Assembly (NCBI RefSeq): GCF_048403405.1
Contig: NZ_CP183129.1
DNA length: 64,000 nt
Reading direction: 5' to 3' (one strand)
From: Escherichia coli
GTDB lineage: Bacteria > Pseudomonadota > Gammaproteobacteria > Enterobacterales > Enterobacteriaceae
Shown here one piece after another: positions 33,001-36,000 of the stretch (position 1 is its first letter; every line of letters begins with the position of its first letter). Position numbers: made by a program.

Positions 33001-36000
33001 CATTAATTTGACGCTGATGCTTACTTTAAATTGTTATTATTTTTTGCCCACTTTTTTAATCTTCCATTCGCGTTGGTATAAGGCGAAGATGTATTAAATG
33101 AGATCATTCGGCCCATCGTCCATTTTTTGTATCATGGTTCACCATACAAAACATCATCAGTTCGTTCATCAATAAGCTTTTGTAGTGGTCAACTAAAACT
33201 GGCCACGGTTTTAGAGTTTTTTCGGTATCGGTTTTCCGATTCATTTGGTGGTAATCCACCGTTATATTCGTGCGGCCTGAGTTCGCTGTAATACCCGACG
33301 ATATAACCCGTTATCGCTTGAGCAGCTTCACTGAAGCTGGTGTAGCCTGTCACCGGCATCCACTCATTTTTCAGACTCCTGAAAAAGCGCTCCATCGGAC
33401 TGTTGACGCTCCTATGTCAAGAGCGGCGATTGGCATATGCGAGGTCCGATAAAATCAATGGATAGAGCTCACGGACGATGTAGCGTTTTAGGCATCTCAG
33501 GATCTCTTTAGTCGATAGCCCTTCACCAGTTCGTCTGTCGACATAGATTCTCGTGCGCGGATCGCTACGCATACGTACAAGGGCTATTGTCCACAGGGCA
33601 TTGTTTGCTTCACGTGAGCCACCACGGTTTAATCTGTGCCTTACTGTTTTCCCTGATGATGCTGGCAGTGGATTTACGCCACAGAGCGATGCCAGGGCCG
33701 CTTCATTTTTTAAACGTTCGGGGTTATCACCCGCAACTGCCAGCAGTGTTGCAGCCGTCTGTGGCCCAACGCCAAACTGGCTACGAAGGTTACTGGCATA
33801 CTTGCGGGTCAGTTTATCTAGTGATTCGTCTAGTTCATTCAACTCTTCAGTCAGGGCCATCCATCGTTTCGCAAGGCTTCGAAGCGTACTGCACAAGGCT
33901 ATACGTAACGGTGAGTGCTCTGACACTTCGCTGTTAATGCAGGCAGTTACGCATTCGTGTGGTTTCGATTTCCAGAGTTTGTCGCGAACATCTTGCGGGG
34001 CACTAACCAGCAGTGCACGAAGCTGATTAATCGCCTGCGTACAGGCTTTTACTGCACTACGTCGGGCAACACTAATAATCCGGAGAGCCTCACATGCACC
34101 TGACTGCATTTTTGGTATGGCCTTGCTGCTCCCTGAAAGCACTGTCCGGGCTGCATTTTCTGCATCTAGTGGATCTGACTTCCCTTCAAGGCGGCGTTTT
34201 GAGCGATCTGGCCGGTTAACTTCAACAACATAAATGCTATTCTTGATGAGATAGCGTGTTAATGCGGCACCATATGTTCCTGTTCCTTCGATGCCTGCTC
34301 GTTCGAGGCTACCGAAAGAACGTGCCCAATCAAGTAGTTCCAGATAGCCCGCTTGATTTGTTTGAATAATGTGAGTTCCAAGCAGTTTACCTGCCTGACT
34401 GATAACAGCGCCGACATGAATATCAAGATGGGTATCGACACCCAGAATCACGGTTTCAGAAGATTGGCGGTCGTTTTGCATGGTTTGCCTCCAGATATTG
34501 GTAGCACAATCATCCCCATCGCAGGACAGGACACTCGGGATGCAGCACAAAGCTCCTATCAGGTCACAAACTCTGGGCCCGGTTATGCCCGGGAAATACC
34601 AGAATCGGACGACAGGTCAACACAAAGGCATTTGAGCCAATCCCAGCACGGGTCAGTCCGATCCGGTATTTGAAAGTATATTAGAATGAGTATCCCAGCA
34701 GTTTCCGCGCCTGCTCATACTTTGCCTGATCCGGTATCGCCACAGTAACTGCCTGAACTACCTGCTTGTATAGTGACTACCCTAATCACTGTGGAACATA
34801 ACCCCGGATGGCTTACCGCGTCTTTCCCATGCCATTTTCAGTGCTTTGGTGGTCAGCCTGCTGTCCGGAGAGAACGACATTGCCCACCCCACGGGTTTCC
34901 GTGCAAATAGATCGAGTACCACAGCAAGGTAAGTCCGGCGTTTACCTGTCCAGATATACGTCACATCGCCGCACCATACCTGGTCAGGCACTGTCACTGC
35001 AAACTGACGTCCGAGGTGATTCGGGATAGCAATATGTTCGTGTCCCCCACGTCTATATCGGTGAACAGGCTGCTGACAACTCACCAGCCCCAGCTTCCTC
35101 ATAAGATGGCCGGCAAGCCATCGTTCCATCCGGAAGCCCCTGTGTGTGGCCATTGTGGCGATACTTCTTGCATCCTCGGAGCCATGACTGAGGCCGTGTA
35201 GTTCCTGAACCTGACTGCGTAATACAGCTAGCCTGCTATCCGGCTTGTCAGGACGGTTTTTCCGGTATTTATAGCTGCTGCGGTGAACCCCAAACACGTG
35301 GCAAAGCGTGGCCACAGGATAATGCGCTCTGAGTTTCCCGATTATCGAGAGTTGTTCAGGGAATCTGACATCAAGAGCGCAGTAGCCTTTTTTAATATTT
35401 CATTTTCCATTTCAATACGTTGAAGTTTTTTCTTCAGCTCACGTATCTCAATTTGCTCCGGCGTGATAGGGGAGGCTTTAGGTGTTTTGCCGGCACGTTC
35501 ATCTCGTAGCTGCTTTACCCACCGGGTCATAGTGGAAAGTCCGACATCCATGGCATTTGCGGCATCTGCAACCGTATAGTGTTGATCCACCACTAACTGA
35601 GCGGATTCACGTCTGAATTCTGCACTGAAATTTCGTTTTTTCATTAAAGCACCAGTGTTGTCCTGAGGGTATTCATTTCGTCGAAGGTGAGTCCCAGAGA
35701 TTCACGATGGTGAATATTGTCTTCTTTCAGCGCACGCAGGGCATCTGTTAATACGGCGTAATTCAGAGACGGAATCATGATTTCGGACCTTCCTTAAACA
35801 CTTCAGCGGTTGGCTAATTTGAGGTTGATCCATTCATCAATTTCAGATTCGAGCCAGGCTACGCTGGCAGGGCCAACCTTTATTATTGAACGAGGAAAAG
35901 AGCCCCCTTTCATATACAGATAGATTTGCGAGCGTTTCAGACCGGTTTTTTCTTCGACCTGTTTCAGGCGTAATAACTGATGTGATGTCATGATTTTCTC

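Follow-up and report, generated by a model that had tools for sequence, protein, structure and literature searches.

A stretch of 64,000 nucleotides of Escherichia coli DNA (RefSeq assembly GCF_048403405.1, contig NZ_CP183129.1), referred to here at its full length as the window, carries an apparently orphaned gene of the AlpA family, alpA, lodged between the yersiniabactin-like nrp gene cluster and the remains of an insertion sequence (IS). Followed along the minus strand, alpA is preceded by the nrp genes and by a pseudogene of a conserved hypothetical protein (hyp). It is succeeded after 24 nt by an open reading frame (ORF) of 44 codons, whose TAA (35646..35644) overlaps the ATG (35644..35642) of orfA in an IS911-like element of the IS3 family. 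Beyond this IS, itself split by an IS110-family element, lie a fragment of a clbS/dfsB-like gene and, on the opposite strand, a frameshifted ardC. The whole assemblage sits inside an integrative and conjugative element (ICE) of the ICEPm1 type. A reading made earlier from the DNA alone (the sequence-only reading) had reported alpA, the 44-codon ORF and the overlap between its stop and the orfA start, all of which are present; it took the ORF for a gene truncated by insertion of the IS, and supposed that an integrase module had been lost from the side of alpA.

AlpA reaches 80.8 bits against the Pfam family Phage_AlpA (E=6.7e-23; cut-off 21), and its residues 4-55 cover positions 1-51 of the 51-position profile, as in a regular member of the family. 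It is 84% identical to the AlpA encoded after fyuA in E. coli ACN002, and the cluster of the latter at 90% identity includes proteins of Klebsiella pneumoniae and Yersinia pseudotuberculosis (Q9X9G4). In this sense, the gene can be read as the positional homologue of xis in ICEKp and of hef in the high-pathogenicity island (HPI), the Xis/Hef identity of that cluster being taken from gene position and from published work (PMC6202445). Public assemblies contain the exact AlpA protein of the window in more than 10,000 index blocks, and the 10 contexts listed (genomes of 3.9-5.3 Mb) were all alike; it has also been recorded from Salmonella and Klebsiella.

The 44-codon ORF matches the Pfam family DUF2857 (PF11198) over profile positions 1-35 of 174, with E=2.3e-6 and 27.8 bits; it falls under the cut-off of 36.8 because it is truncated, and intact full-length relatives reach 213-225 bits. 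In tblastn (E=2.6e-12) it aligns at 68% identity with the first 38 residues of a DUF2857 protein, intact and 194 aa long, from E. coli 2022H047, and in 13 identical E. coli genomes the RefSeq annotation (PGAP) labels the same stretch as DUF2857 domain-containing, incomplete, with the C-terminus missing. Under the gathering threshold the ORF would classify as a fragment of a DUF2857 member and not as a member, and on these matches it is evidently not a chance ORF. The earlier view of it as a truncated gene is thus borne out by Pfam, tblastn and PGAP alike. Its last six codons and its stop codon come from the leader of the IS; as a product of this fusion the 44-aa ORF is a pseudogene without function.

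The setting in which such genes normally occur was taken from a scan of related alpA loci that sampled one genome per species and comprised 80 loci. Those with at least 70% AlpA identity, from a different species and with enough flanking sequence were treated as close relatives (38 loci, mostly Enterobacterales); the flank examined was 10 kb, and the counts of integrase and virB4 genes apply within it. Conservation of the short ORF, which the sequence-only reading had left to a comparison of related alpA loci, is answered by its full-length homologue: an intact DUF2857 gene lies downstream of alpA in all 38 close relatives, within 260 nt in 33 of them. In the same loci traR is also always found downstream (38/38), virB4 follows within 10 kb in 28, and an intact hyp homologue stands just upstream of alpA in 34. 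A P4-like integrase gene on the same strand was found in 13 of the 38, between 3.6 kb and the 10-kb limit upstream of alpA, and the expectation of an integrase immediately adjacent to alpA does not agree with this arrangement. Among 25 more distant AlpA relatives DUF2857 was found in none, and 18 had an integrase within the flank, at least 1.4 kb from alpA.

Two E. coli loci illustrate the design. The ICE of strain 2022H047 runs from tRNA-Asn through int, a small cargo, hyp, alpA, DUF2857, traR, virB1-11, the type IV coupling protein (T4CP) gene and mobC to ardC on the opposite strand, its DUF2857-ardC segment measuring ~17 kb. Strain ACN002 shows irp1, ybtU, ybtT, ybtE, fyuA, hyp, alpA, a further hyp, DUF2857, traR and virB; in this HPI-ICE locus the ybt cluster takes up the entire 9 kb upstream of alpA. 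This layout is that of ICEKp/ICEEc1 (HPI-ICE). Given that the type IV secretion system (T4SS) module follows alpA in the relatives and that int lies far upstream, the module lost from beside alpA is the conjugation/mobilisation module. By analogy with these loci, a conjugation module (~17 kb in 2022H047) would be missing beside alpA, and the integrase would have disappeared from the far end of the nrp cargo. Of the integrase module that the sequence-only reading supposed to be lost, the loss of an integrase therefore stands; its place next to alpA does not.

The joint between the DUF2857 gene and the IS was mapped by aligning the window with intact DUF2857 genes and with intact IS copies (1249-bp elements on Providencia plasmids, ISEc52 and IS911), and also with blastn. 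DUF2857 homology reaches codon 38 (…GAAATGAATACCCTC), and IS homology starts at once inside CCTCA (35668..35664). In the intact ISs, 48 nt including the left inverted repeat (IRL) TGTAGTGG… precede CCTCAGAACAACA…TTAATG; in the window these first 48 nt and the IRL are absent, and no second copy of the inverted repeat occurs anywhere in the window, where the right-end copy is the only one. With the IRL and the 48 nt gone, what lies at the joint is a deletion by microhomology, one of whose endpoints falls within the IS, and not an insertion boundary. The TAATG of the overlap is present in the leader of every intact IS copy ('...GGTGCCTTAATGAAAAAACG'), so that the overlap of stop and start is a by-product of the frame of the fusion and reflects no designed coupling. 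In 10 other ICEPm1 copies (genomes of 3.9-5.3 Mb) the joint does not differ by a single base, and the same truncated arrangement is present in Proteus mirabilis ATCC 29906 and Providencia stuartii NCTC11800. As it is shared by all ICEPm1 copies examined, including those of Proteus and Providencia, the event is old and was inherited with ICEPm1.

Further pieces of the same kind of element survive on both sides. The hyp pseudogene, which starts 170 nt past the phosphopantetheinyl transferase gene in the direction of alpA, carries two frameshifts and three nonsense codons; a count of 12 in-frame stops was rejected, since most of these arise from its two frameshifts. The family to which it belongs (~290-300 aa; homologues at loci L002, 11311..12186, and L098, 7935..8861) is highly conserved in its C-terminal ~70 residues and matches no Pfam family, and a 47-aa N-terminal piece of the pseudogene was once named IrpP in P. 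mirabilis. On the other side, the ardC pseudogene shows 73-78% identity to ArdC from the 2022H047 ICE, but only 30-48% to that of ICEPm1 itself. Between ardC and the IS, the clbS-like fragment meets the right end of the IS at a clean boundary and is 65% identical to residues 121-188 of the ClbS of the ICE backbone; the clbS-like gene was probably the original target of the IS insertion. The backbone clbS/dfsB-like gene, the second such sequence in the window, is full length (15078..15659). Broadly, the ICE-type pieces left are hyp', alpA, DUF2857', clbS' and ardC'; no matches to traR, VirB, T4CP or MobC were found in the window.

The nrp genes occupy the position of the cargo. Their order is colinear with that of ybt, NrpU being 43% identical to YbtU and NrpT 44% to YbtT, and the layout parallels the irp1-ybtU-ybtT-ybtE-fyuA-hyp-alpA series of ACN002. 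The far end of the cluster is marked by an IS200/IS605 relic, followed by ICEPm1 backbone, and no integrase relic was found flanking nrp.

We consider it probable, and hold with good confidence, that alpA, together with the 44-codon ORF, represents the remaining head of the mobilisation module in an element of the ICEKp/HPI-ICE type that is nested in ICEPm1. The ancestral order would have been a P4-like int, siderophore cargo, hyp, alpA (xis/hef), DUF2857, traR, the virB T4SS, T4CP, mobC and ardC, and an element of this kind, with nrp as its cargo, would have become embedded in the ancestor of ICEPm1. An IS911-like IS3 element may then have inserted into a clbS-like gene near ardC, and a single illegitimate deletion at the CCTCA microhomology would have fused codon 38 of DUF2857 to nucleotide 49 of the IS, removing the IRL, the remainder of DUF2857 and presumably also traR, the T4SS, the coupling protein and mobC. 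Decay of hyp and ardC, splitting of the IS3 orfB by IS110 and loss of the cognate integrase would have completed the process. What would persist is a winged-helix DNA-binding protein of the ICEKp/HPI recombination directionality factor kind, probably functionless now, devoid of its cognate integrase, attachment (att) sites and downstream operon. The anatomy of the locus, its breakpoints, the synteny of the relatives and the sameness of the joint among ICEPm1 copies are observed directly; the order of these events, the former status of nrp as the cargo of the ancestral ICE and the present lack of function of AlpA are proposed from them.

Several observations weigh against this reconstruction. 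The alpA gene is intact, has a good ribosome-binding site and shows a ratio of non-synonymous to synonymous substitutions (dN/dS) not above baseline; its dN/dS lying at the family baseline, a loss of function is not demonstrated. In addition, the annotation of the entire ICE lists no second AlpA-family gene. Among the 80 related loci there is none in which an intact ICE of this type carries nrp, so that the role of nrp as cargo rests on adjacency and on the HPI parallel, and the clbS-like gene is not shown to be part of the intact relatives. The nesting of an ICEKp/HPI-type relic in ICEPm1 would explain both the orphan alpA and a 44-codon ORF that is easily miscalled, and that many genomes carry under the label of a DUF2857 protein. 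It would also point to an ICEKp/HPI-type element as the probable vehicle by which ICEPm1 acquired its nrp cluster, providing an example of nested ICEs for yersiniabactin-like loci. The locus represents ordinary gene decay of a known ICE type within a known ICE, already annotated, and no new system.

The intactness of alpA invites a different explanation, namely that the gene has been kept because it is still used, either as an excision or regulatory factor of ICEPm1 or as a Hef/Xis acting in trans on integrases of the HPI/ICEKp type. The ATG is preceded by a GGAGAA Shine-Dalgarno sequence, the median dN/dS (NG86, against 43 relatives) is 0.08 for a family baseline of 0.066, the protein has the 84% identity noted above to the ACN002 AlpA, which in an HPI-ICE takes the place of xis/hef, no other AlpA-family gene accompanies it in the ICE, and a regulatory role of AlpA has been documented in ICEclc (PMC7423338). 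However, an open frame is also what chance could leave: five lesions in ~900 nt of the hyp pseudogene predict ~1 in the 186 nt of alpA, with a probability of none of ~0.36. Both neighbours and the downstream operon are destroyed, and alpA itself bears a tandem one-codon ATA duplication with an ATT-to-GTT change at codons 36-38 (35878..35886), by which the conserved wing region reads SIIKVGP where relatives have SIKIGP (in a few, SVKIGP); the extra codon occurs in one of 45 AlpA sequences. As for dN/dS, a pairwise value cannot tell the time before decay from the time after it, and it is uninformative on present function because it mostly reflects the former. Nor do the numbers of distinct alleles in public protein clusters inform (32 for alpA, 11 for the stub, 362 for the phosphopantetheinyl transferase and 181 for the thioesterase), being confounded by gene calling. 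A consensus scan of 35200..37300 found promoter-like sites no commoner than in shuffled sequences and no terminators, which says nothing on the expression of alpA. Continued use of alpA is, on balance, unlikely. We regard as quite unlikely the corresponding proposal that AlpA was co-opted to tune ICEPm1 excision or a BisDC-like switch, or acts in trans on HPI/ICEKp-type integrases, an idea resting on its standing as the sole annotated AlpA-family gene of the ICE and on its likeness to the ACN002 AlpA; if it were true, action in trans on entry of ICEPm1 into E. coli or Klebsiella would make two islands of unrelated origin depend on each other for their stability, and such cross-talk would be of modest interest.

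On the other hand, the model of the sequence-only reading, in which a simple IS911 insertion truncated the gene downstream of alpA and an adjacent integrase module was lost, accounts for the gene being cut exactly where IS-like sequence starts and for the absence of a cognate integrase. Nevertheless, the IS is short of its first 48 nt and IRL, with no IRL copy left in the window; the right end of the IS adjoins clbS' and not the remaining part of DUF2857; and in the relatives it is the T4SS, never the integrase, that stands beside alpA. Truncation by IS insertion consequently does not hold up, and we consider the model very improbable. A caution of wider use follows, since an overlap of stop and start codons with an IS gene is not necessarily the mark of an IS insertion end. 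Hardly credible, finally, is a functional 44-aa protein, whether dominant-negative on the BisC-like DUF2857 of the ICE backbone or tying the translation of orfA to the transcription of alpA: in its favour are a Shine-Dalgarno sequence of its own (AAGGAAGG), the TAATG overlap with orfA and retention in all ICEPm1 copies examined, but this conservation is merely the near-identity of a recently spread element, only 35 of 174 profile positions are covered, the full-length DUF2857 of 2022H047 is just 34.5% identical to the backbone protein, the TAATG is native to the IS, and the transposase downstream is broken by IS110.

Table 1. Features of the alpA locus and of its surroundings, with positions in the 64,000-nt window.
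Feature	Position	Strand	Description
alpA	35803..35991	minus	Intact, 62 aa, AlpA-family winged-helix protein; Pfam PF05930
Chimeric 44-codon ORF	35644..35778	minus	Codons 1-38 (35778..35665), 5' end of a DUF2857/BisC-family gene; codons 39-44 and stop, IS leader
Deletion joint	35664..35668	minus	5-nt microhomology CCTCA common to the DUF2857 gene (…GCCCTCAA…) and IS nt 49-53 (…CACCTCAG…)
IS911-like IS3 element, left part	34691..35668	minus	IS nt 49-1026; IRL missing; intact orfA and 5' part of orfB
orfA	35342..35644	minus	Intact 100-aa IS3-family OrfA; HTH_Tnp_1, E=8.8e-13
IS110-family element	33405..34690	minus	1286 bp, inside IS3 orfB; transposase 33417..34481
IS3 element, right part	33181..33404	minus	Intact right inverted repeat 33181..33206, ending …CCACTACA
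clbS/dfsB-like 3' fragment	33021..33176	minus	Adjoins the right end of the IS; PGAP annotation
ardC pseudogene	31747..32636	plus	Frameshifted; strand opposite to alpA, as in intact relatives
hyp pseudogene	36132..37043	minus	Conserved ~290-aa gene preceding alpA in relatives
nrp cluster	37213..60776	minus	Yersiniabactin-like nonribosomal peptide synthetase/polyketide synthase cluster; cargo position, with the alpA module on one side and the lost integrase on the other
tRNA-Phe 3' piece	7245..7296	minus	52 nt; marks the parA end of ICEPm1
P4-like integrase ORF	5782..7047		Intact; tblastn match 5812..7047 to the integrase of a relative, 50.6% identity
Backbone DUF2857	12506..13096		Intact, 192 bits; preceded by parB (10332..13096 region)

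The IS3-family element (Table 1) is close to known copies. At 90% protein identity its OrfA clusters with InsN of IS911, and at the nucleotide level the element is 88-90% identical to the 1249-bp copies on Providencia plasmids (blastn) and 85-86% to IS911/ISEc52. With these it shares the OrfA cluster and an IS3-type right inverted repeat; it differs in the missing IRL and the split orfB. IS3 sequence continues across the point of the IS110 insertion with nothing lost. Of the features of an IS3-family element, namely two terminal inverted repeats (5'-TG…CA-3') and an intact orfA-orfB transposase, one repeat is left and orfB is divided, and the element is immobile, having a single inverted repeat and a broken transposase. 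Besides, many E. coli plasmids carry a ~90% identical IS110 element, annotated beside transposase genes of the IS3 family, and at least two records place IS110 at the same point of an IS3 element, one inside ISEc52 on the KMi029 chromosome and one on an E. coli C5 plasmid (H35). This recurrent position suggests sequence-specific targeting of IS3-family orfB.

As to the surrounding DNA, positions 1-7400 of the window are 100% identical to E. coli GN02323, and for positions 6751-64000 the identity to strain 005008 is 99.9%. The ICEPm1-type ICE extends from ~7300 to beyond 64000, with a total of ~93 kb, at tRNA-Phe. Its backbone comprises parA, dnaB, parB, a DUF2857 gene of its own, STY4528 and topoisomerase III, among other genes, and further along the ICE there follow PilL, TraD, a T4SS, taaP, TraI and an integrase next to tRNA-Phe. 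Of 5426 complete E. coli genomes, only 13-14 contain this ICE (with nrp and taaP; known from Proteus, Providencia and Morganella) at 99.9% identity.

The window holds one match to the integrase of a relative (tblastn), and this candidate was rejected as the partner of alpA. It lies outside ICEPm1, directly past the 52-nt tRNA-Phe repeat, in a resident pheV island that ATCC 25922 and many other E. coli share, strains lacking the ICE among them. The lack of a cognate integrase by alpA, claimed from the start, is in agreement with this. ICEPm1 and the resident island form a tandem arrangement at the tRNA-Phe site. The backbone parB and DUF2857 genes constitute a BisDC-like pair, and the window consequently carries two DUF2857 genes of unrelated lineage, the backbone copy and the ICEKp-type stub, the former having the low identity to the 2022H047 protein given above.

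Among known systems, ICEKp comprises int, the ybt locus and then a module with xis, the virB T4SS, oriT and mobBC (PMC6202445); excision depends on xis, and int and xis (hef) are retained in the Yersinia HPI, whose conjugation genes have been lost (PMC6202445, PMC3014918; Lin 2008 and Lesic 2004 as cited there). The window alpA shares with xis/hef its Pfam family, the 84% amino acid identity to the protein that takes this place in the E. coli HPI-ICE, and a position directly after a yersiniabactin-type cluster and hyp; in such elements DUF2857-traR-virB come next. In the window the upstream part of this series is preserved as nrp, hyp pseudogene and alpA, and downstream there is only the 38-codon DUF2857 stub, with no traR or virB. 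The relic resembles the Yersinia HPI in having lost the conjugation machinery and kept the small gene; unlike ICEKp and the HPI, it also lacks the cognate P4-like integrase and the tRNA-Asn att repeats. An element of the ICEKp/ICEEc1 type has int, xis, a virB T4SS and mobBC/oriT between tRNA-Asn repeats, a set that the relic does not possess. Further differences are the cargo, nrp, whose proteins are 32-44% identical to those of ybt, the nesting in ICEPm1 at tRNA-Phe, and the one-codon insertion in the wing motif; a role of the window AlpA in excision is putative.

In ICEclc, BisC (DUF2857) is a subunit of BisDC, the activator of transfer competence, and AlpA represses the promoter of the bisDC operon (PMC7423338). 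The stub belongs by descent to the Pfam family of BisC, and in both element types DUF2857 lies downstream of alpA in a regulatory operon. In contrast to BisC, the stub retains only 38 of ~194 codons, and the DUF2857 gene of ICEKp-type elements has traR after it and no parB-like bisD before it, a BisC-like role for it being putative. The alpA/DUF2857 relic was not found described in the literature searched, which did not include the Flannery 2009/2011 papers on ICEPm1. ICEPm1 itself was reported as a Proteus mirabilis ICE carrying nrp (Flannery 2009 and 2011, cited in PMC5820359); as the host of the relic it is an element of ~93 kb at tRNA-Phe, with terminal integrase and parA genes at opposite ends, a backbone of the SPI-7/ICEclc type, taaP and nrp, and it differs here in residing in E. 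coli, the relic being identical in P. mirabilis and P. stuartii.

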